From a virus: a DNA stretch of 64,000 bases. The position numbers and the translations under genes are program-made. The notes under the pieces are model-generated. The model had not been told where the DNA came from. It saw only the letters and a list, made by a program, of their open reading frames with translations, and did no database searches. The DNA lies in IMG/VR virus record IMGVR_UViG_3300045988_154277; one strand, written 5' to 3'. Below, in pieces: positions 7,848-36,856 of the stretch (its first letter is position 1; every line of letters begins with the position of its first letter).

Positions 7848-7866
7848 TTTCACTTACACTTTTAAA

Positions 7867-7902: not shown

Positions 7903-7919
7903 CCTGTATCTTAATTACG

Positions 7920-10796: not shown

Positions 10797-10829
10797 CCTA
10801 TGCTCAAACCTTTAAATTAGGAGGTTCAA

Positions 10830-15614: not shown

Positions 15615-17318
15615 TTACACCATCATCTTCACCGGCATCAGCCTGATCCAGTCATCGGAGGTGCGCACTGCGATGTAGGAGATCAGAACATTCGAACACG
15701 GCTGGAAGAAGATCGTGAACGTACGAGGATCATTCTGCTTGGACTTCACCATGAAGTACTCACAGTGAGAGGACGGTTTTTCCGGACCACCAAGATCCTG
15801 GGGTTCACAGTTGAACCTGAAGTTCGGCAGTAACATACCGTTGAACGGAAGCGTGGTATACACGACGTTCCTGTTCTTCATACGGACAACCGTATATCTG
15901 AGCAACAGGTCGATCATGTTGGTATAGATCTGCATCGCCTCCAGTGCCTGCGGAGTCTTCTCACCATCGTTGTCGGTATGGAGAGACATCTCACGATATC
16001 TTGCGATATCGCGGATCGGGTGCCCATCCACCAAGACATTGCCATAAACAGCGATGTAGTCGTTCAGACCCTCCGGTGTATTGGGATCGCTCAGCTGGAT
16101 ATCGAGGATCGACTTCAAGATCGTGGAACGAGCCACTGTGTTCAGACGATCACGGAACCCAGCCTGGGACCGAAGTTTGTCGACTTTGGCATCCACCGTC
16201 TCTTCCAAGTCCAGATAGGACAGCAGTTCCCTCAGTGAGTTGATCTTGAACGAACTGTCGGACGGATCCACCGTATTGTCATACAAAGCACCATACATGG
16301 CTGCCATGTTGAACTCCAGGATGAAGATCCCTTCCAACCTGTTCTTGAGATTGGCTTTCAGTTCGCCGAGGATGGCTTCCATGTTGCGGATATATGCACA
16401 CTTGGAGTTCGCCGGAGATGCTTTCGCCATCTCTTTCAGCTTCTTGATCACCGCTTCCGATTCTGCTCTGGGAACCTCATAGGCTTGCAACTGGTTGTAG
16501 TTGACCGATATGTACCTCTCTCTGGAGAGACAGTCCCGCATCCCATGGATCGCCGTCTCGACGGCTTCCTTCGGAGATACGAATCCACGATCCGTATCGA
16601 TCGTAGCCATATCGATCTCCTCTTCCGTAGCGGCATCCTTGTACTGGACGATCGTACCATCACCCCAACCGAGGTGAACATCCGTACCCGCACGACCACT
16701 TTCCGTATTGGTGACCAAGACCGGGGGATTGTAGAGTTCGGGAAGGTCCATCTTCTTCGTCCAGGTCTTCAGATCGGTACCTTCCGAAGACGGCTGCGGC
16801 TGTTGTACAGGCTGCTGAGGCGGAGTGACGATCTGTGTGTTCACCGGAGCTGCTTGCGGGGCAGTCGGAGGCGTCACCACACCATTCGGGTTCGCATAGA
16901 ACCCACCCTGATGAGGAACCGGAGCTTGAACCTGCCCAGTGAACAGAGAGGTTGTCTGATATCCGTTGTTCGCCAACATCGGGTTGTACATCTGAGGTTG
17001 TACCACAACGCCGTTGGTATACTGCGGCTGGTACATCGCCTGACGCTGAACCTGAGCGAACCTGGCAAGCATCTGCTGGATGAGATTCGACAGATACTGC
17101 TGGATCTGTTGATCCGTCGGTTCCGTTCCAAGGGGGAACTTGTTGAAGATAAGGTTGACGAACTCACCGAAGTGCTGGTTGAACTCGTTCACCAGATACG
17201 GCTGGACGTTGGGCAGGATCTGCCCATTGGCGACGAAGGTCTGCAGCATGTTGTTGAACAGAGCATTCACCCTGTTCGAGAACATCGCTGTCGGCGTGTA
17301 GCTAATATTAGCCATAAT
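15615..17318 (-). CDS. Hypothetical protein with Gln/Pro-rich N-terminal region (about 567 aa, start MANISY)
   Basis: RBS TAGGAGAAAACATT before the ATG at 17318. No RNAP motifs. Confidence 0.55.
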   Translation of the reverse strand: MMANISYTPTAMFSNRVNALFNNMLQTFVANGQILPNVQPYLVNEFNQHFGEFVNLIFNKFPLGTEPTDQQIQQYLSNLIQQMLARFAQVQRQAMYQPQYTNGVVVQPQMYNPMLANNGYQTTSLFTGQVQAPVPHQGGFYANPNGVVTPPTAPQAAPVNTQIVTPPQQPVQQPQPSSEGTDLKTWTKKMDLPELYNPPVLVTNTESGRAGTDVHLGWGDGTIVQYKDAATEEEIDMATIDTDRGFVSPKEAVETAIHGMRDCLSRERYISVNYNQLQAYEVPRAESEAVIKKLKEMAKASPANSKCAYIRNMEAILGELKANLKNRLEGIFILEFNMAAMYGALYDNTVDPSDSSFKINSLRELLSYLDLEETVDAKVDKLRSQAGFRDRLNTVARSTILKSILDIQLSDPNTPEGLNDYIAVYGNVLVDGHPIRDIARYREMSLHTDNDGEKTPQALEAMQIYTNMIDLLLRYTVVRMKNRNVVYTTLPFNGMLLPNFRFNCEPQDLGGPEKPSSHCEYFMVKSKQNDPRTFTIFFQPCSNVLISYIAVRTSDDWIRLMPVKMMV

Positions 17319-17449
17319 GTTTTCTCCTATGCATAGATTACTTAAGTGACCAGTTGGACGACTGACCACGGGTCATTAGTCGAATACGTGCGAGATTTCT
17401 TTATACCAGGACGGTATGATAAAGAAACCTGTCTCCATGTCGACTTGGA

Positions 17450-19347
17450 TCATTGGGTTGATCTCACCGGATACAACTGGTGCGGATGGCCTAATGTTGT
17501 TGTTATCATAGCGTTTGCTCGTTAGACAAACTATTCTCTACGTTTCCGTAGATGTTCGGACTATCTTTCAATCCTTATGACTAAGGACAACCGGTCTTTG
17601 GAACACACTTGTGTTCTACTCAGCGTTTCAGCATGATAGTCTCTGATCCTTCTTCCTGGTAACAGGAAGCTTGGAAGCTGATATCCCATTATTACTTCAT
17701 AAGAAGTCTGATCCTTAGCACCATGTGGATACATGGCTTTTATTTCAGCATAGATCATATCAATCATTCTTTCTGCTTTCGCGACTATCACGTTCATCCT
17801 TACGGATCCCGTTGTAGTTGATTGATCTCTTAGGGTATCCCAGCCGTTAACACGGTTTATGCAGCCACAGTGTTACCACTATAGCGCCCCCATACACACC
17901 AGTCATGTGTGAGAGGTAGAGCCAAGATACTTTCAACCACCAACTGAGACGGGTGTGCCTTGAGGAGTGCGACAGGCATATTCCGTCCACCTGTTGTCGA
18001 TTTGGTTTCTGTATTCTCCAGTGAGCGAAATCTCTTCGTGAGTACAGTCAGAAGACTATTGTCGTTGCAAATCGTTGGATTCGCACGGAACACGGAGTTC
18101 GCCATCATCCAGCTCTCTCCTTGAGAAGCTGTGGTGACGAATCGTTTCACCGTATCCGGTGTCAATCCTTCGTTCTTCGCATTGATCACTCCGAAAAGCT
18201 TCGTATTGATTGACGACACCAATGGTGCCATCAACTGACTCAACGAACCGATCTTCTTAGAGAACAAGTTCGTCGGTTCGTAACTGACGATCCACCGATC
18301 GATGTTGTAGAACACCTCTCGGAGAAGTTCGTAGATGCCGTTGACTTGGATGCCGATCGTAGCCAACTGATACTGTGCCGGTGGGTCCAGCAAAGTCGCA
18401 GTGGTCTCAAGATGCTTCTCTGCATTGTCGTAGAGCAGCTGAGCATTCGTAGTACTCGGATAGGTGTATTTGCCTAGCACGGTCTTGTAATAGACCGGGT
18501 GGGTCGCTATCAAATCACGTAATCCGAATCTCGTATACTCAGTGAGACACATCAGGTAAGATGCGATCACCCTTCTCTTGAAGAGATCGTCAAGACAGGA
18601 GTTGTGAACCTTAAGGTAGATATCTTCTCTGATCTCGATGTGAGAGTACTCGTTCGACTCTTCCATCTTCGGTACCAAGGAGATCTCTCCAGGCTGAAAC
18701 CCATAATACTGCATCGTCTTATCGAACGATAGTTCGACCAGATGATACAGGATGATTGGGGTAACACCAGCCTTCTTCCCGCGTCCTCTCTTTCCTTGAT
18801 GGATCTTCACTGTGGGTACGATCTCACGACATACTCTGCCGTCAGTCGTTGTGAAGACGAACTGCTCTGATCTTCTGAAAGTCAATGGTGCACGCATGAC
18901 TTTAATGATCAGACCATCTTGGATACGATGAAGACCGCCGCGCTCTACGATGGCGAACATCGGGAAATATTGCGTGTCGGATAGGATCACCGCTCCATGA
19001 TCCAGATAAGGGATACTGATGTGCAGTGGGTATTGCACATTTTCGAACTCGAAGATGAACTTCAACTGTTCGAATGAACTCTTCTGGATTTGGATCTTCT
19101 TCTTCAGGATCGTGTTGTTACGGATATACTCGATACGCTCGTCAGGAGTTAACCGTTGATACCCAATATAACGTAATCGACCTTTGAAAAGCTTTACTGA
19201 TTCTTGGAACATCACATCGAGATAATCAGGTATCTTCTTAATACTGTTCTCTCTGAAGTGAAGGAGGAAGTCGTCGTTGAAATCCGGGAGCAGATCACTT
19301 GCTCCGATCAGGACATTCCTCAGTACTGGATTGAAATGTTCATCCAC
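17450..19347 (-). CDS. RNAP beta subunit N-terminal fragment, interrupted by a group I intron (exon 1 19347..17905, exon 2 17506..17450)
   Basis: LRYIGYQRLTPDERIEYIRNNTILKKKIQ aligns to E. coli beta [43 protein letters not shown] aligns to the fork-loop GANMQRQAVP. Exon 1 ends on codon CAU (ends in U). The ORF-track reading frame runs on into the intron. Confidence 0.6.
17507..17904 (-). ncRNA. Group I intron A (about 398 nt, no ORF)
   Basis: Homologous to the introns at 40872..41286 and 59203..59606. Shares UGAAAUAAAAGC and the GAAA-capped P4/P5 region (GGUCGAAAGAC-like). Has P7-like GAUCAGAGACUA and a UUAGUC partner. Hairpins carry compensatory changes relative to copy B. Ends ...GCUAUG. 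Confidence 0.6.
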
Positions 19348-20657: not shown

Positions 20658-20693
20658 TGATCACTACGTGTAGTTAACTACACGTAGTGATCA
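20658..20693 (-). terminator. Terminator hairpin (tgatcactacgtgtag ttaa ctacacgtagtgatca)
   Basis: 16-bp perfect stem 5 nt after stop 20699. Confidence 0.6.
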
Positions 20694-20698: not shown

Positions 20699-22456
20699 TT
20701 AACGTAAGACCCATCTGGCTTCATCGATCGCTTTGGTGATATCCGAGTCGAATCGCCATTTGGTTCCAGTGTTGTCACCGAACGATTTCCCGTTGTTGAA
20801 GATCTGTTCGGCAGCTCTAGAGAGTTTCCGATAAGAGCTCCTACCGGAATTATACGAGTTCGAAGATCCATTCTTCGAGAAGACGACTTCTCCTACATCC
20901 TTCAATGCATCCAACTGTCGATAGGTCTCATCATCCAAGACTTCCTTAGCGATACGATCTCCGACATTCGTCAGTTTGTTGAAGAGTTTAGAGTCAGTTG
21001 CTTCATTCATCAACTTTGATACATTATCCACGATGGATCGATCAACACCCAATGCTTCTGCAACATCCCCAACGGTGGATTTCACAGCCTTACAACCGTA
21101 GGATGCGCCTTTGGACAAGATGCCACCAACATTGATCCCAAGGTCATCGATGAGATCCGTGTAATTGCTGAGGTTGTACGGGTTGTTGATCACATTCTCA
21201 GCCATACTGATGATGTCGGATGAGAAGATCCCTTTGTCCTTGGAGAAGTTATCCAAGAGTTTACCGAAGGTGGATACATCTCCGGCATTCTTGGCAACAT
21301 CCAGACCTTTGGTGATGATACCATCGACCAAAGAACTAGTATCAGAGAGGTTGATACCTCCAACACTTTCCAGGACATCACCACCGACACTTTTCGCGAA
21401 GCTGGTAGCAGCACTGGTGATGTTGCTGAGATCGAAAGACCCATTGTTCGATATCGCATCGACAACAGAGCCACCGACACTATCGAGAACTTTATCCGTG
21501 ATACCTTCAAACGTACCACCGGTGATGTCACTGAAGATACTGCTAGCAGTTGTCTCACCGAGGATCGAAGTCATCGAGTTAGAACCGAGCTGCATCCCGT
21601 TGATGCTGGATGCTAGAGTGGAAGTCAGACCAGAGCTTCCACTTAAAGCACCGGTGATCAAACTGGCAGTACCCGATCCACCGAGAAGACCTCCCGTGTA
21701 TCCAGATACCACATTACCAACCAGATCACTTCCGATCGAAGAGAGACTCGGCGTCTCACCTTGGATGATCCCCAACCCAGCATCGGCTACGGTACCAACA
21801 ACAGAAGATGCGATCGTTGGAGGAACCACACCCCCTGTCATAGCAGAGACATACATCCCAGCACCGGATACAGCAAGGTCTCCTAACCCACTGTTCAGAA
21901 GACCTTCTGCACCGCTAGCCAGAGATGATAAATCCCCACTCAGAAGACCGCTAGCTCCACTTGTCAGAGAAGAGAGACCACCTCCCATAGCAGAGCTCAA
22001 TCCACCAGTCAAGGAGGAGAGCCCACTACCACCCAACGCAGATGCTAAACCTCCACCCAGAAGGTCTTTACCTTCGTTGAATAACCCTTGTGTCAATGAG
22101 TTAGCTGTGAGTTCTCCGGTTAAACCACCCAGCAGATCAGAAGACAACGGGTTCGTCACTGCACTTGGCATGATCGATGTCAAGGCAGGTGCAGTGAACC
22201 CAGTTACAAACATATCCTGTGCATGAGACATCATGTCCGTGGCGTAGCTCTGCATCGCAGACAGGTCCAAGTTCGCGATGTCGAGAGCGATCCCACCACG
22301 GACGGTATCGAGAAGACCACGTACATTCGTCGCAGCTTGTAACTGCGACATCATGTTGTTGGCACTCTCGTTGATGATGTCCATTGGATTAAACGGAGCG
22401 ATCTTAAACAACCCACTAAGGTCGAGCGGACTGACTCCGGTTAAATCTGTCAACAT
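20699..22456 (-). CDS. Gly/Ser/Leu/Thr-rich low-complexity protein (585 aa), possibly a virion internal or fibrous protein
   Basis: Long repeats of type GGLSSLTSGASGLLSG. Lies 14 nt downstream of the giant gene in the same operon. Confidence 0.55.
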   Translation of the reverse strand: MLTDLTGVSPLDLSGLFKIAPFNPMDIINESANNMMSQLQAATNVRGLLDTVRGGIALDIANLDLSAMQSYATDMMSHAQDMFVTGFTAPALTSIMPSAVTNPLSSDLLGGLTGELTANSLTQGLFNEGKDLLGGGLASALGGSGLSSLTGGLSSAMGGGLSSLTSGASGLLSGDLSSLASGAEGLLNSGLGDLAVSGAGMYVSAMTGGVVPPTIASSVVGTVADAGLGIIQGETPSLSSIGSDLVGNVVSGYTGGLLGGSGTASLITGALSGSSGLTSTLASSINGMQLGSNSMTSILGETTASSIFSDITGGTFEGITDKVLDSVGGSVVDAISNNGSFDLSNITSAATSFAKSVGGDVLESVGGINLSDTSSLVDGIITKGLDVAKNAGDVSTFGKLLDNFSKDKGIFSSDIISMAENVINNPYNLSNYTDLIDDLGINVGGILSKGASYGCKAVKSTVGDVAEALGVDRSIVDNVSKLMNEATDSKLFNKLTNVGDRIAKEVLDDETYRQLDALKDVGEVVFSKNGSSNSYNSGRSSYRKLSRAAEQIFNNGKSFGDNTGTKWRFDSDITKAIDEARWVLR

Positions 22457-22469: not shown

Positions 22470-25400
22470 TTAGAGGTTGGTATCGAGCATCATCGATTGA
22501 AGGAGTTTACTTCCCACTACAGATGCTCGAGTACGACTATTCGGATCGATCGTATCCAGATCAGCTTCTCCGTTCTCTTCCAACATCCTGCGGAACTCGC
22601 TATACCCGTGGATGTTACCACCACGGATGTTCACCAATTCCTGCATCGTCTTGCTGAGTCCACGAGCAGCGAGGATCTGGATCTCCGGGTTCGTGATGGA
22701 ACAAGCGCGACTGTCACCAGTAACTTGCCCAGTCAACCCATCGATCGTCCGATCATTATCCGGAACTGAAATCTTCTCATCCAAGAACTGTTGTTGTCTT
22801 CGGATGGGGAGTTTCACGAACATATACTTGTTGTCGGTCAGATACTTACGACCAGTTGCACGGTCATACATCCAAACACGTTGGAAGAGATCCAACCCGA
22901 TCATATCACAAGCTTTCAGAAGATCTTCGTTCTGCAAGTTCACGATCATGTTGGGAGCGACGATGTGGAGCTGCCACTTGCCTTCCTTCATGTAGTTCAT
23001 GAACTGATCAAACTCTTTGTCATTCATCTGTCCTATGATCTGACGATACCGTTTGGAGTTCAGTCCGGACGGTTCCATCGTATCACAGAGCTTACAGATG
23101 TAGTCCAAGATCTCCTTCTTTTTCTGAGCGATCTTGGATGATGCGGTTGATGCTTCCATAGAAGAACCTAATTGTTCTGTTGACGATTGAGACTCCGAAT
23201 CAAAAGAAGTACATTCCAATGATTCGACAGCTGGTCCGAACTGTTTTACCATACTTGGATCAAACTTAGTTTCCCAAGTCACAGTGATCTTCTGTTTCGA
23301 AGTGTACTTCAATGGTTCATCATCCACATATCGACACTCACGTTTCGTATCTCCACCACCAAACGTTTTTAACTTAGACTTTACATCATCAGTCAGTTTG
23401 ATAGAGTAAAGATACCCAGTGGATTCACCATGTGTTTCTTTAAACGTCTTTGCGTTGTGATACACAGTGATGTGTTTTGGAATTGTATTAAGTTTGGAGA
23501 CGTCTTGTTTCCAAACATCATAACTCCAATGAATAGAACGATAACCGTGGTTCTCTTCTCCATACAAATCTTGTTTGTTTATGATGAAGATAGAAGCGAT
23601 CCCTTTCAGAGGAGAAAGGAAGATTGACTTCTTATATTGAGAAGCTCGTCCATAACCTTTCAGTTCTGTCAGATCGTTTGGAGATCCATGATAGAGTTCA
23701 TCACCCCATGTTTTCATCTGAGCAGAAGTTAGCTTTTCAGCTGACATCTTCAGCACATCAGTCTTCAAGACCATCAAGTACATCTTCTCTCTAGTTTCTA
23801 CAATCTTGAATCCCATAGACTCATACAGATGACACACCTTCTGGTTCGTCTTGTACGCACAGATGTAGATCTCAGTTGTGATTGGGTTGTGTTTCAGCAC
23901 ATATTGAATCGTAGCAGATACACTCTGCTTACCATAGCCCTTTCCCTGATACTTGGGGAAGATACCGAGATTAAACAAATCCACGGTGTTGTCTTTATAG
24001 AACATCACACCGATCGATCCGATCACCTCTGATCCATGCATCAACAAGAAGAACTGACGTCCTTTCTTCAGATCAGCTTTGACATCACTCGGAGTCCATT
24101 TCTTATAGTCATCTGGATCGTCGTCAATCAGATCAGCTGTATCTGTCACATACTTGACTTCTACCTGATTGGATAGATCCAGTTCCTTCAAAGTAATGGA
24201 ACTAGCTGGTAACGTCAGAGATTCAAGACTTATAGGTAACACTTCCATAGACACATGGACAACATCGCCTTCCAATTCCAGACTGGCTAAAGACTTAGAC
24301 ATCCTTTTTGGTTTCGGGGCTTTCCCTCCAGTCAGTTTTGGATTATGAACGTATTGTACATCCACATTGGTGTAAGTATTTGGTTGTATCCCATTAATAC
24401 TCAAATGATTTGGATCACCAGTGTATCTTAGGATAGTCTTCTTGTCTGATACTGTTTCCGAAAGAAAGTCTTGTGTACAGCGGTTTGTTGGAACTTTGTA
24501 AACATCGACCGACACAGTCTGCGTTGGCTTACAACGATATCTCCAATTAGGTTTTCCAATATCGTTGTATTCAACGATGATCAGAGAGTTGTGAAGATTG
24601 ACCTGTTTTGGTATAATGTTAAACAGAACAGTTCCACGTTTCATATTCCAAGTTGCAGTTTTAGCACCAAGCGCAACAGCATAATTGCTATCTGCACACA
24701 CTAGAATTCTATTCCCTACCTTAGGAAGATCCGTTCCACCTGCTGGAATACCAACGTAAACAGGTTTCCCCTTAACGTCAACCACTTCAACTTCGCCAGC
24801 CTGGACATTAGCTGCCTTTTCCTCTGACACCACGCAATCCTCAGGGATATCCAACGACTCAAAACCACGGAAGAACGCTTTCACGTTCTCACGTTCTTTC
24901 TTATCAACGATCTGATCGAACTGGTCTCCGGACCACTGCATGATATCCTCCATACGGGTTGAGAGGTTCGCTTCCTTGCCGGTATCAAGAACCAGACTGA
25001 TGATTTCACAATCTGTATCCTGACCGATACGGTGCACACGGTCAGATGCCTGCTGATACTCGATCGATCTCCAAGGTTTGTTCAGGAAAATCACTGTGTT
25101 GGCAGCCGTCAAGGTTGCTCCAGTACTCAACATCTTCAAAGATGCGATCAATGGATTCAACGACTGATCCTCTTGGAACCGTTTTACCGTGTTAGTCAGT
25201 TCAGAAGCTGTTTTACCGTATACAGCAAGTGGAGAATACCCTTCCTTCTGGAAGTAGTTATAAGCCAACTCGATCGTATCCACATAAGACGTGAATACAA
25301 CAGTCTTCTTCATGGCATCATCCACATACTGCTTCAGATCAGCAGCTTGCATCATCTCAGAGGTCATCTGCATACGGAGATGTGTCAATAAGGTACCGAT

Positions 25401-27623
25401 CACCTCTCCTTTGATCTTGAGAGGAAGGTACTTCACAACAGACTTCGACCAGATGAACTTCTTCTTGAGATCATCAGGAAGAGCAGGGATCAGAACGTCG
25501 CGTTCATACTGATTCGCCCAAACGATATCAGCGTTACCACGAGCATCAACGATATTCGAGTTGCGCAACTCGTCGATGATGTTCATATACCGTTGGAACT
25601 CAGGTTGATCACCGATACCAGGTTCATTCTGCAACCATTCGATCGCGTCTTCGAATGCTGTGATATACGCTGTGAGATTCTGTTGATAATAATCCTGTCG
25701 TTCTTTGACGAAGGTAATGATCTGTTTCTCCACTTGGGATACCGTATACTTCCATCCTGTTGACATACGGACAGAGACCGTTGTTTCTTTCTTCTCAGGA
25801 AGTGACAAGATATCCTTCGTAACACGAGTGATCATACGAGTGAGTCTTGCATTTAAGACGTCGTTTGCGATCGCCGTGTTGAAACCGAATGTCGCTTTGA
25901 AGATCGCACATGCTTCATCATCGAAGTAAGGATCCAAAACAGACATGATCGGGATGAGTTCGACTCCTGCGCACTTGATGGGCGTGCCACTGAGCAAGAG
26001 TAGATCTGCATTCTGATTGTATCTGGCAAGATCCAACAACAACTGTGTACGAAGAGACGAAGTTCTCAGGAAGTTATGAGACTCATCTACGATTACACCG
26101 AGGTTGTTGAGTTTGTTCTTGATCAAGAACTCTTTCACTTCTTCGATCCTCTCATAGTTCACGATGATCCATCGGGAGGATGTAGTGAGAGGACCTTTGG
26201 TATACCCAGCAACCCACACCTTCTGTTTTTGGTTGAAGAACTTAATCAGATGTGTGTTCCAAGTCTCCAACATCGTGTTCTTCGGACAGATGATAACGAC
26301 ATGTTCTTTCTTCAGAGCTGTCATCAACCCTAGAGCTGTGATCGTCTTACCAAGTCCTTGTTCGAAGGACAACAGATAACCTCTCAGGTGGTTCGTCGTC
26401 TTATTGGTTACATAGTTCTTGATGAACTCGATCTGATGCTCATAGAACTTGGCGTTGATCTCTCTATTGAGAACAGTCAGATCTGCGAATTCTGTCGGTT
26501 GAACAGCAGTACCTACCCAAGTATGACTTTTGATCGTATCGGTTAAGCTAACAGGGAATTGAAACTTATCCAAAAGATAGATGAGTTCCGGTATGAAGAA
26601 CTTATGGATACTGATCGTTCTCTTCTGAGCGAAGAAGAACCGGATACCGATCACCTTGAACAGGTGTTCCAGTTTCGTAGTTTTATACTCTTTGCGGAGT
26701 TTGTTGAAGAACTGGATCACCGGAAAGTTCCGTATCGTGTAATACATCCCCTCTTCCACAACAGGATCGAACAACCCTTCTGAAGATATCACAATAGCTT
26801 CAGTAGATGTGGTTTCCTCTCCGACCTGCGAAGTCACACTCATCTTAAGCTTAGGCGGATCCGGGATCGGCTCGCTGCTCTGAACATAGAGTTTAGATGG
26901 GATCCACATCAAGCAAGCTTCCAACACTTGAGTATATCTCGGACCATAAGACCAACGTTTGTCTTTGTTCTTCAGCCACCAGTCTTTCGCGGTATCACCC
27001 ATCTCGATACCAACAGCAGCCCAGTCAGCTACCATTTCACCGAGAGCCATCAGGATCGCAGGATGCCCTCCCTTATCCTTATATGCATCCTTCAGTTTTT
27101 CATCTGAGATCACCCACTGTTCTTTCTCAGGATCCGGACGATGCATATAGTTCTCAGGGTGATGGTCGTTGAGTTGGTGGTGCTTAGGCCATTCAATCTC
27201 TTCATAGACTCGCTTTGCTTCTGGAGAGATCTCATAGAGATCCTTATACTTATAAAGCGGAGCATTCAGTGCGAAAGACGCAACATGTTCGTTCCCTTGA
27301 AGCTTATCGTAATCATGCTGTTGGACTTTGGCGATGAACCGATCGAAATATCCTCCGAACTGGAAGAACTCGCGAAGGTAGTTCGCGCAGATCTTCACAT
27401 TCTCAACGTGGTTCTTCGTCCTTTGAATATGGTAACGTAAGATCCACTGAGCCAATTCAGCATCCGACAGAACAGTGTTGTTCTTCGTGATACAGGACTC
27501 GATGATCTTTAATACAGTTCTGTTAGGATCACACTCGATCAGTACTTGACCGCCTTTTTTAGACAGGTTGTTATAGTACATCGTATCGAATGGGACCTGT
27601 TTGAAATTGAGTTGGTCACTCAT
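22470..27623 (-). CDS. Giant multidomain protein (1717 aa): unknown N-terminal region, SNF2-family helicase, GNAT acetyltransferase, unknown C-terminal region
   Basis: SNF2 motifs LSFEQGLGKTITALG (motif I), VIVDESHNF (motif II), LLLSGTPIKCAG (motif III) and QASDRVHRIGQDTD (motif VI). The GNAT signature is LGIFPKYQGKGYGKQ...HLYESMGFKIVE. Confidence 0.7.
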   Translation of the reverse strand: MSDQLNFKQVPFDTMYYNNLSKKGGQVLIECDPNRTVLKIIESCITKNNTVLSDAELAQWILRYHIQRTKNHVENVKICANYLREFFQFGGYFDRFIAKVQQHDYDKLQGNEHVASFALNAPLYKYKDLYEISPEAKRVYEEIEWPKHHQLNDHHPENYMHRPDPEKEQWVISDEKLKDAYKDKGGHPAILMALGEMVADWAAVGIEMGDTAKDWWLKNKDKRWSYGPRYTQVLEACLMWIPSKLYVQSSEPIPDPPKLKMSVTSQVGEETTSTEAIVISSEGLFDPVVEEGMYYTIRNFPVIQFFNKLRKEYKTTKLEHLFKVIGIRFFFAQKRTISIHKFFIPELIYLLDKFQFPVSLTDTIKSHTWVGTAVQPTEFADLTVLNREINAKFYEHQIEFIKNYVTNKTTNHLRGYLLSFEQGLGKTITALGLMTALKKEHVVIICPKNTMLETWNTHLIKFFNQKQKVWVAGYTKGPLTTSSRWIIVNYERIEEVKEFLIKNKLNNLGVIVDESHNFLRTSSLRTQLLLDLARYNQNADLLLLSGTPIKCAGVELIPIMSVLDPYFDDEACAIFKATFGFNTAIANDVLNARLTRMITRVTKDILSLPEKKETTVSVRMSTGWKYTVSQVEKQIITFVKERQDYYQQNLTAYITAFEDAIEWLQNEPGIGDQPEFQRYMNIIDELRNSNIVDARGNADIVWANQYERDVLIPALPDDLKKKFIWSKSVVKYLPLKIKGEVIGTLLTHLRMQMTSEMMQAADLKQYVDDAMKKTVVFTSYVDTIELAYNYFQKEGYSPLAVYGKTASELTNTVKRFQEDQSLNPLIASLKMLSTGATLTAANTVIFLNKPWRSIEYQQASDRVHRIGQDTDCEIISLVLDTGKEANLSTRMEDIMQWSGDQFDQIVDKKERENVKAFFRGFESLDIPEDCVVSEEKAANVQAGEVEVVDVKGKPVYVGIPAGGTDLPKVGNRILVCADSNYAVALGAKTATWNMKRGTVLFNIIPKQVNLHNSLIIVEYNDIGKPNWRYRCKPTQTVSVDVYKVPTNRCTQDFLSETVSDKKTILRYTGDPNHLSINGIQPNTYTNVDVQYVHNPKLTGGKAPKPKRMSKSLASLELEGDVVHVSMEVLPISLESLTLPASSITLKELDLSNQVEVKYVTDTADLIDDDPDDYKKWTPSDVKADLKKGRQFFLLMHGSEVIGSIGVMFYKDNTVDLFNLGIFPKYQGKGYGKQSVSATIQYVLKHNPITTEIYICAYKTNQKVCHLYESMGFKIVETREKMYLMVLKTDVLKMSAEKLTSAQMKTWGDELYHGSPNDLTELKGYGRASQYKKSIFLSPLKGIASIFIINKQDLYGEENHGYRSIHWSYDVWKQDVSKLNTIPKHITVYHNAKTFKETHGESTGYLYSIKLTDDVKSKLKTFGGGDTKRECRYVDDEPLKYTSKQKITVTWETKFDPSMVKQFGPAVESLECTSFDSESQSSTEQLGSSMEASTASSKIAQKKKEILDYICKLCDTMEPSGLNSKRYRQIIGQMNDKEFDQFMNYMKEGKWQLHIVAPNMIVNLQNEDLLKACDMIGLDLFQRVWMYDRATGRKYLTDNKYMFVKLPIRRQQQFLDEKISVPDNDRTIDGLTGQVTGDSRACSITNPEIQILAARGLSKTMQELVNIRGGNIHGYSEFRRMLEENGEADLDTIDPNSRTRASVVGSKLLQSMMLDTNL

Positions 27624-27670: not shown

Positions 27671-27689
27671 CCTGAACATCAAGAAATCT

Positions 27690-27720
27690 AACTGAGGTAG
27701 AGAGCTACTCTACCTCAGTT
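27690..27720 (-). terminator. Terminator hairpin (aactgaggtagag...ctctacctcagtt) followed by AGAUUUCUUGAUGUUC
   Basis: 13-bp stem downstream of stop 27735. Confidence 0.5.
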
Positions 27721-27734
27721 AGGGTCGATATATC

Positions 27735-29916: not shown

Positions 29917-30237
29917 TCATAACAGTCCGTGAGACTTGACGGTATTCGCTCTTGCGAATGAGAATGGAACACTCATATCTAGATTCGGGATAACTGTCGT
30001 GCTCGCTCTGGACGGTACTTGTTTAACCAGTCCATCATCTCCGCATATAAACGAAGATGGGTTCGCAAGGAAAGTCTTCAGGTCGATCCTGTTACCAGAG
30101 TGATCCGTAATCACATTTTCGGATACAGAACGAACACGAAGACCATTGGTATCTTCAATAGGAGCTTTCTGTGACTCATTGTACACTTCGGCTCTTACAA
30201 CCACGTCGTCTTCATTGACATATACTGCGATACGCAT
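29917..30237 (-). CDS. Hypothetical protein (106 aa)
   Basis: Last gene of the minus-strand structural-looking block. Confidence 0.5.
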   Translation of the reverse strand: MRIAVYVNEDDVVVRAEVYNESQKAPIEDTNGLRVRSVSENVITDHSGNRIDLKTFLANPSSFICGDDGLVKQVPSRASTTVIPNLDMSVPFSFARANTVKSHGLL

Positions 30238-30247
30238 AGTTGCCTCC

Positions 30248-32245
30248 TTAGACCAACAGGTCGACTTGCTGCAGAACGAATCGATCGTTCAACAGACTGT
30301 TGGTTCCAGTTTGACTCTTCAGGGTCAATGTGAAGTCGGTGATCGTTCTCATGGAACTCTTCGCACTGACCTGTCTGTTCTGCTGAGTCAGAGAACACGA
30401 GATCGCACAGAGATCCTGGATATAATACATCACGATCGGTTCAACACGATCCTGCAATTCGATCACCTGGTTGGAAGACTCCTCGATCACCTGGTTCTTA
30501 TACCGGTCGAAGACCTTCACTTTGATACCTCTGATTTGAGAGATATCGATGTCGTTGTTGTTGATCGTGTGGTTGACCACCATACCCGCTCCATCGATGA
30601 ACGGATCTTCGGGCATACCTCTATCCACAACCCAGGTGTTGTCGGTTGTAATGGCAGCATCTCCATCTCCATTCTTGTAAGACACATTCTCGATGTCCAC
30701 CACATTGACTGTACCAACCCAGGTAGTGTAACGATCGCCCAACACCGATACCGTATTGGTGACAGCAGAGTTCGCTTGAGATGCGATCCACTGTGTACCA
30801 TCCGGGAGAACTGTCTCCGTTTCCGTATTGGGGTGTTTCACACCACCACTGTCGATCACATCCCACACGGTAGCACTACCTGTCTTATCGTAGAACGTAA
30901 GCTGAACATCACCAGGTGTTTTGCCATTGATCGACATCTGCAGGATGAACCCGTGATTGATATCGGTACTGTCATACACGATACGGAACTTCGGAACGAT
31001 CCGAGTATCGAAGTGAGACAACCCATTGTCCTCATATGTGGTTCCATGGACCGACACGTTCGACAACGAGATCTTACCAGAGATCATGTTGTACGTCAAT
31101 GCGAAGTCTGCGTTGTAATCGTAAGTTGGGACTTCCAACCGGAAATACCCAGTACCCACATTGACGATGGGGTTCATCTCGGTCCACGGACCGTGCGATA
31201 CTGCTGCGATATCCACCCAGTTATCGTCACTGTACTGGATCGCGTTGTACGAGAAGTTGGTGATCTCGTAAGTGAACGACACCTGCTTGTAGTGGCGTAC
31301 CGCTTCTTCCACGATCGTCAACCGGTTTTCGATCTCTGTGATGATCGGCTGAGCCGGAAGGTTCTCTGTTGTGATGAATTGACCGCTTCCCAACAACTGG
31401 ATCACATCGATCAGCTCGTCACGCAGACTGTAGAAGTCGTTGGCTGTGATCTCTCCTCCGAACGCACGGTAGTCCACTTGGATCGTACCAACGATCGGTG
31501 TTGTGAGCACGATATACTCATACACGCCACTCTTGTGAGAAGAGACTCTCGTTTTCCCGTGATTCACACCACGAACGATATAGTCTCTACCTTCCACAAG
31601 ATCAGTTCCGTTGTAGGTGAGAACAAGATCGTGTTTGTAGAAGGATCCGTTCGCAGGTCTGATCACGTACTTGTTGTTCGGAACGTTGACCTGATGCTCT
31701 TCGTTGAAGATATGGTTGTTCTCATTCAGACCGGTATAGTCCTCATCCAGGATCTGGAGTGTTGCCAGAGTGTCGCTGGTTACATCGACCACTGGGTCTT
31801 TGACATACTTCAAATACTGAAGATCTTTCAGCATCGCAAGCATCAGACCTGGTGTTGGTGTGGGACCGACACTGGTGTCCGGGTAATCGGTCAAGTACCG
31901 ATAGAACCCTTGGTATTCCACACTGATTTGGAACTCTTGTCCGGTCAGAACGGATCCTGTCATCAGGATCCCACGAACAAGGTTCGCTTGGAAGGTAGAA
32001 TCCTCAAGCTTCGCTTCGGAGATCGCGTTCGTTGCCTGCAGACTGGAACGATGTGCCCAGTCTGTGTTCTCATGCAACTCGATCGGTGCTCCTTGTACGA
32101 TCTTGTAAACTTTGATCGTGCTTGCGAACGCAGGCTCTCCAAAGTCGATCGTCTGTGTGGACTGGAACACCATGTAGCGTCTATCTCCACGCTTGAACTC
32201 GGGATCACTACCAGTGAGATCTGTCATTTTGATATCGTCTGGCAT
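30248..32245 (-). CDS. Structural protein, tail-fibre/baseplate-like (665 aa)
   Basis: Asn/Thr/Gly/Tyr-rich, beta-rich composition typical of fibre proteins. The 702-aa antisense ORF 30146..32254 has Arg/His/Cys/Asp shadow-ORF composition and is rejected. Confidence 0.5.
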   Translation of the reverse strand: MPDDIKMTDLTGSDPEFKRGDRRYMVFQSTQTIDFGEPAFASTIKVYKIVQGAPIELHENTDWAHRSSLQATNAISEAKLEDSTFQANLVRGILMTGSVLTGQEFQISVEYQGFYRYLTDYPDTSVGPTPTPGLMLAMLKDLQYLKYVKDPVVDVTSDTLATLQILDEDYTGLNENNHIFNEEHQVNVPNNKYVIRPANGSFYKHDLVLTYNGTDLVEGRDYIVRGVNHGKTRVSSHKSGVYEYIVLTTPIVGTIQVDYRAFGGEITANDFYSLRDELIDVIQLLGSGQFITTENLPAQPIITEIENRLTIVEEAVRHYKQVSFTYEITNFSYNAIQYSDDNWVDIAAVSHGPWTEMNPIVNVGTGYFRLEVPTYDYNADFALTYNMISGKISLSNVSVHGTTYEDNGLSHFDTRIVPKFRIVYDSTDINHGFILQMSINGKTPGDVQLTFYDKTGSATVWDVIDSGGVKHPNTETETVLPDGTQWIASQANSAVTNTVSVLGDRYTTWVGTVNVVDIENVSYKNGDGDAAITTDNTWVVDRGMPEDPFIDGAGMVVNHTINNNDIDISQIRGIKVKVFDRYKNQVIEESSNQVIELQDRVEPIVMYYIQDLCAISCSLTQQNRQVSAKSSMRTITDFTLTLKSQTGTNSLLNDRFVLQQVDLLV

Positions 32246-32250
32246 GGTGA

Positions 32251-33450
32251 TTAGCCCTTTATATTTTCAATCGCTTTTTCATATGCAGCTAGCTTGACTT
32301 TCAAGCTATCATTCTCTGCGATGAGTTGTTTCATCTCGGTATTGAAGAGTTTGTCGATCAACAGCTCACCAGGTGTATCGTCGATCACTTCCTGTCTGGC
32401 TTGGTTGATACTGTTGTACTCTTCTGTGGTAAGATAGATATCATCGTAGCGGTTGATCTTAACCAGTTCCTTATCCGCTGGGAACTGCTTCCCATCCGCT
32501 TTGATGCCGTATCTCACTTCCAAGAGTTCGGTGAGAAGCATGATCATATCCGTGACCATCTCCAGATCAGAGAAGACTCCAAGATTGATACCTAAGATCA
32601 GTTTGTCATATCGTGCGATGGATCCATCCGGAACTCCATCGACAAAAGACAAAGGTATGTAGATCACGATATCTTCATTCCGTGGATCAACCAACTTGTA
32701 GAACATCGTGTTCTGGAAAGAAGGTTCGTCCTTGTTGTAGACATCCTTAGCAACTCCGATCGGGGCGTACAGATTGTTGTACACGTCGATACCAGACGAC
32801 AACACATCTTTGTAAGAGAGGATCTTATCAACTCGATATACCCCACAGTACACATCGTGATATGGACTGTCTGGATCTCGAGAGTAACCCAACTTCTCAA
32901 AGTCTTTTACGAAGGTGAACCGATAGATCTTCCCAAGGATCAGATTGACTGTATCGTAACGTTGTGTCGTCAACGTGTTGTAGTTGGTCTTGGTCACCGT
33001 CCGGTTGGTCTCAGAGAACCGATAATTCGTGAATGCATTGTAGTACATCACGGACTGCGTTGTGATCAGATCACCTGTCACAGGATCGGTAGATGTGACG
33101 GGTTCACCGACGGTGATCTGGATGTTCGGATCATCGAACGCTGCAAGAGTTGGAGCATTATCCTCTCCGATATCACCTTTCTCCGTATCAACAGCATAGG
33201 TGACATTCCAAGGATCGGTAACTTCTGTTGTCGGTTGATATTCCGAGTAGTAGATTTTGAGACGATCGTACGAAGCGATCACCCATCCTCTACCACTCAA
33301 GTAATATACAACGACCCGTTGATCGAGCTTATCAGCGATACCACTCCACTCTCGGGCATTCCCAGATGTGGAAGGATCAACAACGGTGAGGTTTTGATTG
33401 ACAACAGCGGTTCCGGCTCCTGTAATACGGATACCTCTCTGTTCCATCAA
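32251..33450 (-). CDS. Structural hypothetical protein (399 aa)
   Basis: Tightly coupled within the block. Confidence 0.5.
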   Translation of the reverse strand: MMEQRGIRITGAGTAVVNQNLTVVDPSTSGNAREWSGIADKLDQRVVVYYLSGRGWVIASYDRLKIYYSEYQPTTEVTDPWNVTYAVDTEKGDIGEDNAPTLAAFDDPNIQITVGEPVTSTDPVTGDLITTQSVMYYNAFTNYRFSETNRTVTKTNYNTLTTQRYDTVNLILGKIYRFTFVKDFEKLGYSRDPDSPYHDVYCGVYRVDKILSYKDVLSSGIDVYNNLYAPIGVAKDVYNKDEPSFQNTMFYKLVDPRNEDIVIYIPLSFVDGVPDGSIARYDKLILGINLGVFSDLEMVTDMIMLLTELLEVRYGIKADGKQFPADKELVKINRYDDIYLTTEEYNSINQARQEVIDDTPGELLIDKLFNTEMKQLIAENDSLKVKLAAYEKAIENIKG

Positions 33451-34919
33451 TAACTCTCCTGTTTCAGAAGGTGGAATTCAATGAAGTTGGAGATGAATGC
33501 CAGATACTTCTTCTGTTCCAACGTTTCTTCGGTGAAAAGGTTGTTGTCATTGGATTGCAACCCAAGCGCTACTTTCATAGCGAGTGCAAGATCCATATTG
33601 AAAGATTGTGTCTCCTCAGTCATGAGGTCCCAATACATCCCAGCGTTGGCATCGATATTCTGGTAAGTCGGATGGATGCTTCCGAGATTCAGAAGATCAC
33701 TCGGGTTATCGAGCAACGGGAACGCGTAGATATACAACCCAGATCCAGCAGCCATCAACAGAGAACCGTTCTTACGGATCCAATCGATATCCGTGTTCGG
33801 GAACAGCTGAGCCATCTTCTGGATCATCTGATTGTATCCGATGATGTTCTTATCGATGACATATCCGTCAGTCAGAGAGACACGGTTGATGTAGAACGGG
33901 ATCAAGTAGAACCCACCATCGACGAACAAGTCAGGAAGGACACCTTTCCACACTTCTTCTGTTGCCAACCCAAGAGCAAGGAGTTCTTCACGGATGTAAT
34001 CACGCATCGCAGCAGAGGACGGGGCACACCCCTTGTACAGTACAGTGAACGGCATCCTGTAATACGTGGCGAGGCTGCTGTTGACATATCTCGACACATA
34101 GGTCGCCAACCCACTGTGATCTTCGGATTTGATCGCTTGCTGAAGCTGTTCATCTTTAAACCCAGAAGATTCGACGATAGCAGCAACAGTATTCGCGAAA
34201 TCCATGTCCAGAAGACGTGCTGGATCACAAGGCCAAACAACCTTCACCAAAATGGACAGAGGGTAATCAGCCAGGAACGCTTCCATCCCAAGCCAAATCT
34301 TGAATGTCAACACATCGGTGCCAACTCGGAACTGAAACTGGATCGACTGATAGAACGGAACAGCTGTTCCGTACATTTTGTATCCAGCAAGACTGGTATC
34401 CGACAACCGAATGTCGGAGTTGGTTGTTCCTGCAGATACTTGGATACTTCCAGGGACATACCCAGAGAACGAAGCAGATTCACTCTTCATCGCGCCATCC
34501 AACTGTTCAGCAGAAGGAAGCGTATCAGTACTGGTGTGTTGCAGGAAGCAATACTCGATGATGTTGAACAGATAAGTTCTTGTGACATCACTTTGACTGA
34601 TCGCGTCGATCCCGCGAGCATCCGCTTCATCCATGTACACAGGACGTACATGGGTATAGTCGTTACCATCTCCTTTACGGGTGTTGTCGAACTGAAGAGC
34701 CATACGACCGAACGCCTGTCTTCCAAAGGGAGTAAGAGACATACGTTTGTTATTCTGCGATACCGATCTTGGATCGAACAGAGAAGTTGGGTTGAGGAAG
34801 TAGTTGATCATCTGATCATTGAGAACCCCAAGTTGACTCTTACCGATATCCGGATAAGAGAGCATGGAGCCTCCACTCACCCCAGCGAACGATCCGTCGG
34901 AGCAAAAGGCATAAATCAT
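33447..34919 (-). CDS. Structural hypothetical protein (about 490 aa, start MIYAFCSDG)
   Basis: RBS AGGAGG 6 nt before the ATG at 34919. Candidate promoter CATGCTATGC lies 35 nt upstream. Confidence 0.5.
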   Translation of the reverse strand: MIYAFCSDGSFAGVSGGSMLSYPDIGKSQLGVLNDQMINYFLNPTSLFDPRSVSQNNKRMSLTPFGRQAFGRMALQFDNTRKGDGNDYTHVRPVYMDEADARGIDAISQSDVTRTYLFNIIEYCFLQHTSTDTLPSAEQLDGAMKSESASFSGYVPGSIQVSAGTTNSDIRLSDTSLAGYKMYGTAVPFYQSIQFQFRVGTDVLTFKIWLGMEAFLADYPLSILVKVVWPCDPARLLDMDFANTVAAIVESSGFKDEQLQQAIKSEDHSGLATYVSRYVNSSLATYYRMPFTVLYKGCAPSSAAMRDYIREELLALGLATEEVWKGVLPDLFVDGGFYLIPFYINRVSLTDGYVIDKNIIGYNQMIQKMAQLFPNTDIDWIRKNGSLLMAAGSGLYIYAFPLLDNPSDLLNLGSIHPTYQNIDANAGMYWDLMTEETQSFNMDLALAMKVALGLQSNDNNLFTEETLEQKKYLAFISNFIEFHLLKQESY

Positions 34920-34954
34920 AGTTAACCTCCTATGACGATTGAAGTAGAATTTAG

Positions 34955-34964
34955 GCATAGCATG
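34955..34964 (-). promoter_or_regulatory. Candidate second-class promoter element (minus strand CATGCTATGC)
   Basis: See 27661..27670. Confidence 0.35.
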
Positions 34965-34965
34965 A

Positions 34966-34979
34966 CCTGCTATAGCAGG
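34966..34979. repeat. Palindrome CCTGCTATAGCAGG (second copy)
   Basis: Identical to the core at 7051-7064. Confidence 0.5.
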
Positions 34980-34991
34980 CAAAAAAGATAC

Positions 34992-35027: not shown

Positions 35028-35363
35028 TCACAGATAGTATCCGAAGCCCTCTCTGGACTTCCTCTGTTTGGTCATGTTGGACTGTATCTTAGCGATTAAA
35101 GAGTCTGTCTTTTGTGACGGAATCTTCTTCTTGAGATTCGACTCGATCAACCAGTAAGGTTGTCCTTTGTTCGGAACGTGGAATGTGAAAGCCACGTGTG
35201 TCTGGTCGAACCCTCTCGCTATCGAAAAGTGGTAGATCGTTTCATCCTTCGTGAATGTCGCAGGATACTTCTCGATCAAATAACCTTTCGGTAGATACAT
35301 ATGCGGTACTCGCATCCCGATCGTTTGGGAAAAGTCGATCCAAGTGCCATTTAACGTAAACAT
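35028..35363 (-). CDS. Hypothetical protein (111 aa)
   Basis: Overlaps the helicase stop by 13 nt. Confidence 0.5.
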   Translation of the reverse strand: MFTLNGTWIDFSQTIGMRVPHMYLPKGYLIEKYPATFTKDETIYHFSIARGFDQTHVAFTFHVPNKGQPYWLIESNLKKKIPSQKTDSLIAKIQSNMTKQRKSREGFGYYL

Positions 35364-36856
35364 CCTTCAGATCCTCCTCCTGGAAGATGGTAGAAGTAAA
35401 CATTGCGTGCTCGTTCCTGATGCAGATCTTTCCTTTCATGGTAGTGACGTACTTGGGCTTGGATCGCCCAATCTACGATCTCTACATATTCAGGAGTCTC
35501 TCCATCTGGAAGCTCTCTTAACCGTCCTCTTGTCTGATCCACAACAGTATCCGCTTTACAGGATACGGTTTGTATCACAGTCTTAAGGTTCTTGATGTCT
35601 GTCCCACATCCTGCTTTCTTAGGAGTGGAGATGATGATCTCGTGGTTCATCAACACAGTATCATCCATCCCTCCGGTGTACGTTGTGATCTTAAATCCAG
35701 GATACTTGTCTTTGAACCAGTTGTATGCATAATCCACCATTTCCAAACGAGCGAAATAGATCAGCATCTTCTGACCTTCTTTTCTTCTATTGATGAAATG
35801 GATGTTAACAACCGGGAAGACAACTTCGTTGAAAAAAGCCCTCAGATACGTGGGTCTTTTTAACAACTCCAGCTCGTATTTTGCATGGTTGTACCCCCTA
35901 GCCTTGACGCACTTCTTTTCGTTCACATTCCCCATAAAGGCATAGGTGTAAACATCGATGTATCTCTTCCTGAGATGCTCTCCATATCGCATCTCAGATG
36001 GATAAATCATCTTGAAGATCCGACGGGTGATATTGGAAGCAGCAGAGAAGGTAGCTGTCAAGTAGATGTTGTTGATCACATTCGAGTTGAGATCGATGAT
36101 CGTATCAGCGTGGAAGTTCAGATGAACTTCATCCATGATCTTCGTACCAATACCGAAGTACTTCAAAAACGAAGACCAGGAGGGAAGATCCTGATAGTTG
36201 TTCTTCTTGTTCACCCAAAGACGAATGGTCTCCAAGCTACACACGAAGATATCAGGTTTGACCTTCCCTTCCAGAAGTCTGGTGATACTGTCGATCCCTT
36301 GGATCATATACACTTGCCCTGGTTTGGCATTGGTGAACTGGTAGATCGAACGTACCCATTGATCCTGTAGACCAGAGACGATGATCAATCCAGCATAGCC
36401 TAGCTTCACCAGGGAAGCGATCGATGAGACAGTTTTCCCAGAACCAGTTGCCGTCGCCAACCCTTTGCGATACATGTCCTGGTTCGTTAGAAAATTGATC
36501 ACTCCAACCTGTTCTGGTCGAGGAGTGAATGAGTTGATCATGCGGATATCGATCTTCCTTGGGGTAACCAAAGGTTCATCCACGATGTTCAACTCTACGC
36601 CAACTTCTTCGAGTTGGTCGATGATCAGAGGTAGTGCGTTGATCGGAACATAGAGACGATCTCGCACATAATCTGCACTGATGAACTTCCTCGTGGGCAT
36701 CATACGTCTACCGTATCGTGTCTTCACGAAGTCGTAATCTGTGAGTTTATGATGAGTGATCGCTCGGATGTTCGGAGCCCATGCATTGTTAGGGTTGACA
36801 TGGATGATCGCCCTAGTGCTACCTCGTTCGATCAGAACTTGGTTGTTGTTACTCAT
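35351..36856 (-). CDS. SF2 DEAD/DEAH-box helicase (501 aa)
   Basis: Motif I ATGSGKT, motif II DEVH (IMDEVHLNF), motif III TATF and motif VI QTRGRLRE. Confidence 0.7.
   Translation of the reverse strand: MSNNNQVLIERGSTRAIIHVNPNNAWAPNIRAITHHKLTDYDFVKTRYGRRMMPTRKFISADYVRDRLYVPINALPLIIDQLEEVGVELNIVDEPLVTPRKIDIRMINSFTPRPEQVGVINFLTNQDMYRKGLATATGSGKTVSSIASLVKLGYAGLIIVSGLQDQWVRSIYQFTNAKPGQVYMIQGIDSITRLLEGKVKPDIFVCSLETIRLWVNKKNNYQDLPSWSSFLKYFGIGTKIMDEVHLNFHADTIIDLNSNVINNIYLTATFSAASNITRRIFKMIYPSEMRYGEHLRKRYIDVYTYAFMGNVNEKKCVKARGYNHAKYELELLKRPTYLRAFFNEVVFPVVNIHFINRRKEGQKMLIYFARLEMVDYAYNWFKDKYPGFKITTYTGGMDDTVLMNHEIIISTPKKAGCGTDIKNLKTVIQTVSCKADTVVDQTRGRLRELPDGETPEYVEIVDWAIQAQVRHYHERKDLHQERARNVYFYHLPGGGSEGCLR

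Follow-up and report, generated by a model that had tools for sequence, protein, structure and literature searches.

The giant open reading frame and its modules

We analysed a stretch of 64,000 nucleotides from the IMG/VR virus record IMGVR_UViG_3300045988_154277 (hereafter the window) and concentrated on one giant open reading frame (ORF) on its minus strand. This ORF (22470..27623) is complete, starts with an ATG and runs uninterrupted over 1717 amino acids (aa). We propose that its product, of approximately 195 kDa, is a precursor. The phage that bears it is a metagenome-assembled jumbo phage of the phiKZ-like (Chimalliviridae-type) group, and phiKZ-like genes of the window include the tail sheath, virion structural proteins and several split RNA-polymerase subunits. 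The initial annotation, made from the sequence alone, had rightly called the ORF and described its product as a fusion enzyme of a helicase and an acetyltransferase. This description was too narrow. The ORF consists of six modules: an HD domain, an SNF2 helicase, a module that we call A, a GNAT acetyltransferase domain, a module with an ADP-ribosyltransferase (ART) fold, and a C-terminal domain assigned to the beta subunit of the virion RNA polymerase (hereafter beta-C). GNAT is one optional cassette among them. Nor is the combination of helicase and GNAT, which had been thought undescribed, new information, because the automatic annotation of IMG names both for this exact protein ('SNF2 family helicase / RimI-like acetylase'). 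An identical 1717-aa protein is encoded on three metagenomic contigs, one of them the contig of 278,450 bp to which the window belongs, and a nucleotide search with the giant ORF against 50,697 phage records gave no match.

The N-terminal module (residues 31-247; 26883..27533, on the minus strand like all the modules below) is an HD-superfamily, metal-dependent phosphohydrolase-like domain. Residues 64-234 match Pfam DUF5662 (E = 2e-10), and the domain shows the hallmark of the superfamily, i.e. the metal-binding residues H...HD...H...D on an all-helical HD fold. DUF5662 belongs to the HD superfamily, an assignment that we did not find in the literature searched; the term 'DUF5662' itself returned nothing in a literature search. 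A word-indexed protein search with this domain alone found only one near-identical protein. Its structural neighbours are cyclic-dinucleotide phosphodiesterases, which give a lead to its target only.

The second module (residues 283-925; 24849..26777) is an SNF2-family helicase and carries all the motifs that the initial annotation had listed: GLGKT at 423, DESH at 513, LSGTP at 544 (SGTP at 545) and QASDRVHRIGQ at 858. Pfam agrees, with SNF2-rel_dom at 396-625 (E = 1e-17) and Helicase_C at 768-867 (E = 2e-16), both well above their gathering scores. The two RecA-like lobes, with motifs I, II, III and VI, place it among the SNF2/SWI2 proteins, and its best matches in the Protein Data Bank (PDB) are SNF2/Rad54/SWR1-type ATPases. 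The module ends near residue 925, short of the limit at about residue 1000 that had been given. It matches PHROG 62 (E = 3e-77), and BLASTP aligns residues 297-925 with positions 23-653 of the 703 residues of phiKZ gp203 (PHIKZ203; 29% identity, E = 2e-78). This alignment spans the whole gp203 protein, beyond the helicase core, and identifies the module as its full-length orthologue. A tblastn search with the module retrieved 446 phage records, mostly from jumbo phages among those listed.

Module A (residues 945-1116; 24276..24791) has no recognisable family: it gave no Pfam match at E ≤ 10 and no tblastn match in phages. The GNAT acetyltransferase domain follows (residues 1170-1281; 23781..24116). 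It reaches 45.5 bits with the Pfam model Acetyltransf_1, for which the cut-off is 20.7 (E = 1e-11), three further GNAT models exceed their cut-offs (the models matched are Acetyltransf_1, 3, 7 and 10), and the PDB entries 6wqb and 2fl4 are GNAT matches. The domain had been recognised from the start, but was misplaced at 1270-1360: its real span is 1176-1280, approximately 90 residues upstream, with YQGKGYGKQ at 1225 and GFKIVE at 1271. Its predicted fold and its putative acetyl-CoA-binding motif A (Q/R-x-x-G-x-G/A; here QGKGYG at 1226-1231) are those of GNAT enzymes, and the RimI-like enzymes of the automatic IMG name are a lead for its target. A tblastn search of phages with the middle 573 aa, which hold module A, GNAT and the ART module, gave nothing; hence, cultured phages have no close relative of these cassettes.

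The initial annotation had seen no recognisable motif in approximately 400 N-terminal and 350 C-terminal residues. These regions hold the DUF5662 domain, the ART module and beta-C. When the three were compared with PDB sequences, by sequence and by profile, they gave chance matches only, which is why a fold comparison was needed. By this comparison, the fifth module (residues 1297-1470; 23214..23735), which starts right after 'MSAE', is a member of the ART fold. With a putative triad of H1312, Y1404/Y1406 and E1429, it would be of the H-Y-E clade type, like Tpt1/KptA, PARP, diphtheria toxin and Arr. The family to which it belongs was previously unannotated and comprises 98 clusters among 1.84 billion representative proteins. 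Its Y and E are conserved at ≥90%, and its H is often replaced by F; the query has the H (H1312). The structural neighbour that serves as a lead for this module is Tpt1. The latter is able to ADP-ribosylate 5'-phosphate ends of nucleic acids.

The last module, beta-C (residues 1491-1717; 22473..23153), is an orthologue of phiKZ gp149 and of SPN3US gp218, and would be a C-terminal fragment of the beta subunit of the virion RNA polymerase. Residues 1500-1717, i.e. the last 218, match PHROG 3233 'RNA polymerase beta subunit' (E = 2e-64). BLASTP aligns the domain to positions 3-223 of the 224 residues of PHIKZ149 (34% identity, E = 2e-44), an end-to-end homology. Searches with the single sequence and with a profile of 16 sequences matched no solved polymerase. 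The domain shows motifs that we take to be like those of the beta regions H and I. By tblastn it is found as a separate gene of approximately 225 aa in 293 phage records; in the 64-kb window the gp149-type sequence occurs in a single copy.

Constant anchors and exchangeable cassettes

A search of 5.8 billion proteins retrieved 87 relatives of the giant protein, on contigs of up to 280 kb, which together with the query make the 88 proteins compared here. We mapped the query onto these relatives; the resulting counts of modules are marks in a crude catalogue. In this catalogue, which draws on many samples, 82 of the 88 proteins have beta-C, almost always as the C-terminal module, the helicase is marked in 80/88 and the HD domain, mostly N-terminal, in 73/88. 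The ART-fold module has 69 marks among the 88 proteins, several of which carry two or three copies, while GNAT has 20 and module A only seven. The order HD ... helicase ... beta-C is kept in about 80 metagenomic relatives. Around this order there are 64 distinct architectures among the 88 proteins, and the contents of the slots between HD and helicase and between helicase and beta-C vary even where the anchors are more than 90% identical.

NADAR, EVE and a second HD domain are among the further cassettes of the relatives. In other giant proteins, outside this clade, the ART-fold module is accompanied by SNF2, InPase, LigD, GNAT and HD domains. The relatives P0077, P0072, P0069, P0142 and P0166, for example, provide NADAR (an ADP-ribose-processing domain), HD, EVE, InPase, an AAA kinase-like domain, and a LigD phosphoesterase with an ATP-dependent ligase. 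Such a set hints at the repair or modification of nucleic-acid ends and at conflicts over ADP-ribose.

The fusion is not the rule among phages. Cultured relatives encode the helicase and their gp149 homologue in separate genes at unlinked positions, and 76 of the 80 IMG/VR loci with a gp149 relative have it standing alone, with approximately 225 aa. Two more distant IMG/VR contigs carry independent fusions of a gp149-like domain. On the first (L010, 238 kb; 2968-6660), an unassigned N-domain ('GGRIPVYMPVT...') is followed by the helicase and beta-C, with no cargo cassettes. On the second (L011, 236 kb; 4918-6651), the same type of N-domain is joined to beta-C without the helicase. Another contig (IMGVR_UViG_3300045988_163688, 361 kb) shows the fused locus twice, inverted, near both of its ends (loci L007 and L008); this is probably an inverted-duplication artefact of the assembly and not a larger genome.

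Protease motifs at the module boundaries

Prohead proteases of phiKZ, 201phi2-1 and SPN3US cut C-terminal to the Glu of A-x-E or S-x-E, and gp21 of T4 also cuts after Glu. At the level of sequence, the corresponding substrate motif, S/A(/G)-x-E, is present at all five junctions of the query. Linker 1 (residues 249-282; 26778..26879) has four [SAG]-x-E sites, with E at 251, 270, 275 and 282. Linker 2, 'GFESLDIPEDCVVSEEKAANVQAGE' (residues 920-944; 24792..24864), has S-x-E sites with E at 922, 935 and 944. Linker 5, 'VESLECTSFDSESQSSTEQLGSSME' (residues 1467-1490; 23154..23225), has four [SAG]-x-E sites and presents 'SSME↓AS' just before beta-C (arrows mark the predicted cut). We defined five junction zones from the break points of homologues, which cover 12% of the length of the protein. 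These zones contain 14 of the 29 [SAG]-x-E tripeptides of the query (binomial P = 2e-6). Shuffling the residues within the zones, which keeps them rich in S and E, gave 6.1 ± 2.0 sites, and none of 5000 shuffles reached 14.

More telling than these counts, the motifs are conserved in position across the relatives. Before beta-C, all 65 distinct contexts have one (S-x-E in 64, [AG]-x-E in one) whatever the preceding module, as in SSME↓A, LSVE↓A, VSTE↓A and PSME↓A, against a frequency of 0.136 in random windows of equal size. It lies 6-14 residues before the point where homology to the stand-alone gp149 proteins starts. Compared with these gp149-type proteins, whose sequence begins 'MSIA.KKK', a product cut at SSME↓A would carry only about 6 extra residues at its N-terminus. 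Before the helicase, in 'ISSE↓GLFDP', the motif is found in 54 of 58 unique contexts, and after it, in 'PEDCVxS-x-E↓K', in 53 of 69. The ART module starts directly after an S-x-E, whether it stands behind the helicase or behind GNAT. Even the distant lineages L010 and L011 have junctions of the S/A-x-E type: PSME↓G before the helicase and PSME↓A before beta-C in the former, PAME↓A before beta-C in the latter, i.e. xME↓A before beta-C in both.

We also considered internal initiation as a source of separate beta-C. We rejected it because the internal ATG before this domain has no ribosome-binding site (Shine-Dalgarno sequence), which makes a separate translation of beta-C unlikely.

A head-packaged polyprotein as the favoured reading

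The conservation of the S-x-E junctions suggests modules that are separated after packaging rather than one fusion enzyme. We therefore consider it reasonably probable that the giant ORF encodes a head-packaged polyprotein, which is cut at S-x-E into separate proteins that are ejected with the DNA. Both the cleavage of the precursor and its packaging are predicted here from sequence, in the light of what is reported for the orthologues of its parts. In phiKZ, gp149 belongs to the virion RNA polymerase as a subunit and is injected along with the DNA, as is gp180 (bioRxiv 10.1101/2024.03.24.586471), and gp203 is a 'structural protein' that is packaged in the head, proteolytically processed, associated with DNA and non-essential under laboratory conditions (PMC12676376). 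Capsids are also where the helicase homologues of PhiPA3 (gp233) and RAY (gp131) localise. In SPN3US, gp218 is an essential 25-kDa 'head ejection, vRNAP beta-C' protein, and none of the polymerase subunits enters the prohead until they have assembled. The initial annotation had already suggested a protein that is packaged in the head and injected, and this idea gains indirect support from the orthology of two parts of the ORF with phiKZ head proteins.

The proposed sequence of events would be as follows. The precursor would become part of the prohead, perhaps carried there by the virion RNA polymerase: since the subunits of the SPN3US enzyme assemble before incorporation, a cargo fused to beta-C could enter with them. 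A prohead protease of the phage, of the gp175/gp21 type, would then cut after the Glu of S/A-x-E and yield six products, which would be ejected together with the DNA. Beta-C would complete the virion polymerase for early transcription, and the helicase might work beside the polymerase, in a RapA-like manner, or on the DNA that has been injected. Like T4 Alt, the HD, GNAT and ART enzymes would modify targets of the host or of the phage in the first minutes of infection, here the vulnerable time before the phage nucleus is formed. They may have an anti-defence or host-takeover role.

A broader proposal is more tentative, and we regard it as possible but rather uncertain: in this clade of metagenome-derived jumbo phages, beta-C and the gp203 helicase may together carry a hypervariable injected array, made of ART-fold, GNAT, HD, NADAR, EVE and unknown modules, as one polyprotein cut at S-x-E. 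If this is true, a tailed phage would have a polyprotein strategy that couples the delivery of the transcription machinery to that of fast-shuffling takeover or anti-defence effectors, at a stage that precedes the nucleus.

Some points make the polyprotein less certain. The cleavage of ejection proteins varies among relatives. By tblastn, the 64-kb window has no match to gp175, the prohead protease of phiKZ, or to the neighbouring gp174, gp176 and gp177. The identity of beta-C as a polymerase fragment is deduced from its orthology with gp149 and from the literature, and a second gp149 gene might lie outside the window. Finally, a relative that is 96% identical and lacks the ART module (loci L002 and L003) has its ORF split at 10001-10059 by a frameshift in the linker between GNAT and beta-C, which leaves overlapping ORFs of 1285 and 240 aa. 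This frameshift could be an error or a natural split, and the locus shows that beta-C can be encoded separately.

Alternative explanations

One alternative keeps the polyvalent virion protein uncleaved. The whole chain would be ejected, and beta-C would tether the helicase, together with the HD, GNAT and ART domains, to the polymerase in a RapA-like arrangement. Iyer et al. 2021 proposed that the SNF2 helicase of jumbo phages works with the phage polymerase like RapA, and showed that the phyletic patterns of the two correlate. Many ejection proteins of SPN3US are not processed, and the strict conservation of the beta-C fusion also fits a tether. We nevertheless find this explanation unlikely. 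The fixed S-x-E at every boundary, across swapped modules, would have no obvious use in an uncleaved chain, and phiKZ gp203 is known to be processed. Most other phages encode the helicase and beta-C as unlinked separate genes, and tethering is hence not needed for function. In addition, an intact chain of 195 kDa and six domains, bound to a polymerase subunit, would need to travel through the tail tube and fold again.

A second alternative is the one first put forward in the initial annotation, an anti-restriction system like DarB of P1. For example, the helicase would move along the injected DNA and GNAT would acetylate a host defence protein or some small molecule. The two domains are there and, by sequence, seem catalytically intact, the orthologue of the helicase is DNA-associated in phiKZ heads, and phages are known to have GNAT effectors that modify the RNA polymerase of the host (Rac of phiKMV, cited in Iyer et al. 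2021). However, the analogy fails on its defining feature, since a methyltransferase is the defining partner of the DarB helicase and no DNA methyltransferase family was detected by Pfam at E ≤ 1. GNAT itself is optional, with its 20 marks among 88 proteins, and can be exchanged with other cassettes; moreover, an unrelated module and S-x-E linkers lie between it and the helicase. The non-essentiality of gp203 argues neither for nor against a role in defence. Overall, we give this explanation little credence.

That the ORF is an artefact or a pseudogene, i.e. a gene fusion created by an assembly error, or that its modules arise from internal starts or frameshifting, is very improbable: the split ORF of L002 and L003 would fit it, but these two loci are not independent observations because they are identical over the compared 4.8 kb (locus positions 6001-10800), whereas assemblies from ENA, JGI, NCBI and Logan yield about 80 protein clusters with an unbroken frame, the identical protein recurs on three contigs and the internal ATG lacks a ribosome-binding site.

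Genomic context

The giant ORF is followed, 13 nt downstream, by a co-oriented gene of 585 aa (20699..22456, minus strand). The initial annotation had described the product of this gene as a Gly/Ser-rich partner in the same operon. Its composition (14% Ser, 14% Gly and 12% Leu) bears out the first point, and it has no PHROG or Pfam family. As for the second, a terminator-like hairpin with a 15-bp stem lies upstream of the giant ORF (27688..27722, minus strand), and another with a 16-bp stem lies after the 585-aa gene (20658..20693, minus strand), where it closes the unit. Because these two strong minus-strand hairpins flank exactly both genes, a single transcription unit is plausible. As for the candidate late promoter of the initial annotation, the 64-nt leader of the giant ORF contains only two TATG tetramers. 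We considered the 585-aa gene as a counterpart of phiKZ gp201, which adjoins gp203, and rejected it, as it has no similarity to gp201. We also dropped the ORF at 7920-10796, which had been considered as the portal in order to read the phage's own cleavage motif: its matches are only to 'virion structural protein' entries, at 21-25% identity.

Other polymerase genes are present in the window. The ORF at 57688-59235 (plus strand) is an orthologue of phiKZ gp180, the beta' subunit of the virion polymerase (30% identity, E = 5e-60). Two adjacent beta-like ORFs on the minus strand (37015-38931 and 38931-40874) match PHROGs 3015 and 3295, and a 496-aa ORF two genes downstream of the giant ORF (17857-19347, minus strand) matches PHROG 2943 'polymerase'. 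A smaller SF2 helicase of 501 aa (35351-36856, minus strand; PHROG 16, E = 9e-22) is encoded 8 kb upstream of the giant ORF, and may be the counterpart of RAY gp250, a non-virion helicase of the SWI/SNF family.

The window also contains long antisense ORFs (350-700 aa) that are almost co-extensive with probable genes. They pair 30146-32254 (plus) with 30248-32245 (minus) and 33471-34925 (plus) with 33447-34982 (minus). One (4048-5760, minus) lies inside the tail sheath gene (3742-5868, plus) and another (21165-22226, plus) inside the 585-aa gene. The gene calls of the source contig take the 665-aa minus-strand ORF of an antisense pair. These ORFs are probably an effect of codon composition, although their extent is unusual. 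No tRNA genes were found in the 64 kb. The G+C content is uniform (0.43-0.52), and the GC skew is steadily negative from 1 to 52 kb and turns near 52-54 kb together with gene orientation.

On L002, an IreB-RuvX-DUF1292 cluster (16641-17631) lies a few kb downstream of the fused locus. This trio is typical of Bacillota chromosomes. The cluster could be a hint at a Bacillota host, a captured host segment or the trace of a chimeric assembly. The sample labels BRIT16 and NIEL14 look like those of human-microbiome studies.

Significance and comparison with known systems

How phiKZ-like phages survive the first minutes, before the nucleus is in place, is an active question, and injected head proteins are little understood beyond the polymerase subunits. 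From this locus, it would seem that some phages of the group inject several enzymes as a set that is physically tied to the virion polymerase, and that close relatives swap this set one cassette at a time, which is the signature of an arms race. The locus also provides concrete cleavage sites and a candidate packaging route, with cargo carried on a polymerase subunit. If modules flanked by S-x-E are indeed packaged and released, the heads of jumbo phages could be loaded with foreign proteins by the same design.

Giant, variable and injected phage proteins with multiple enzymes are known already (Iyer et al. 2017, 2021, 2022), and so are the two anchors, gp203 and gp149. In the literature searched, we did not find a fragment of a multisubunit virion polymerase as the constant C-terminus of such a protein, a fusion of beta-C with the gp203 helicase, or motifs of a trans-acting protease at every cassette boundary, which would imply a polyprotein. 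Nor did we find a description of the new ART-fold family.

The closest known counterparts are those of the anchors. Beta-C shares a PHROG and end-to-end homology with phiKZ gp149 and SPN3US gp218, which are stand-alone genes of approximately 225 aa in these two phages and form here the C-terminus of a 1717-aa ORF. The helicase shares all its motifs with the 'virion-associated SNF2 helicase' of the group (phiKZ gp203, PhiPA3 gp233, RAY gp131 and OBP). In phiKZ, gp203 is a stand-alone protein of 703 aa, whereas here the helicase has the HD domain on one side, and three modules and beta-C on the other.

At the level of the whole protein, the giant ORF belongs with the polyvalent proteins of Iyer et al. 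2017 (PMC5512222), a class of large and variable proteins that combine several enzymes and for which injection along with the DNA is predicted. Like these, including those of the N4 type, it combines SNF2 ATPase, ART, GNAT and HD-type modules in variable architectures. Unlike them, it has none of the usual anchors by Pfam or PHROGs, i.e. MuF, the N4-type polymerase, the zincin-like peptidase MPTase or the methylase-helicase dyad. Its anchor is a putative fragment of a multisubunit polymerase and not the single-subunit N4 polymerase or MuF. Moreover, where polyvalent proteins embed a peptidase, this protein has at each junction a motif for a prohead protease that would act in trans.

DarB of P1 is also a giant helicase-bearing head protein that is thought to act on injected DNA, as may be the case here, but it is built on a dyad of N6-adenine methyltransferase and helicase, and no methyltransferase is detectable in the present protein. 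RapA of E. coli is an SNF2 ATPase tied to a multisubunit RNA polymerase. Pfam finds none of the RapA-specific N- and C-terminal domains here, and the link is physical, in one ORF, made by a gene fusion with a probable cleavage site. The proposed logic is that of T4 Alt and the internal proteins of T4, in which a packaged precursor is cut by gp21 after Glu and an effector is injected; Alt modifies the RNA polymerase of the host by ADP-ribosylation. The ART domain of Alt is of the R-S-E type, whereas the one described here is putatively H-Y-E (Tpt1/PARP/diphtheria toxin-like). In T4, targeting peptides of 10-20 residues are placed on separate small proteins, while here up to six or more modules share one chain.

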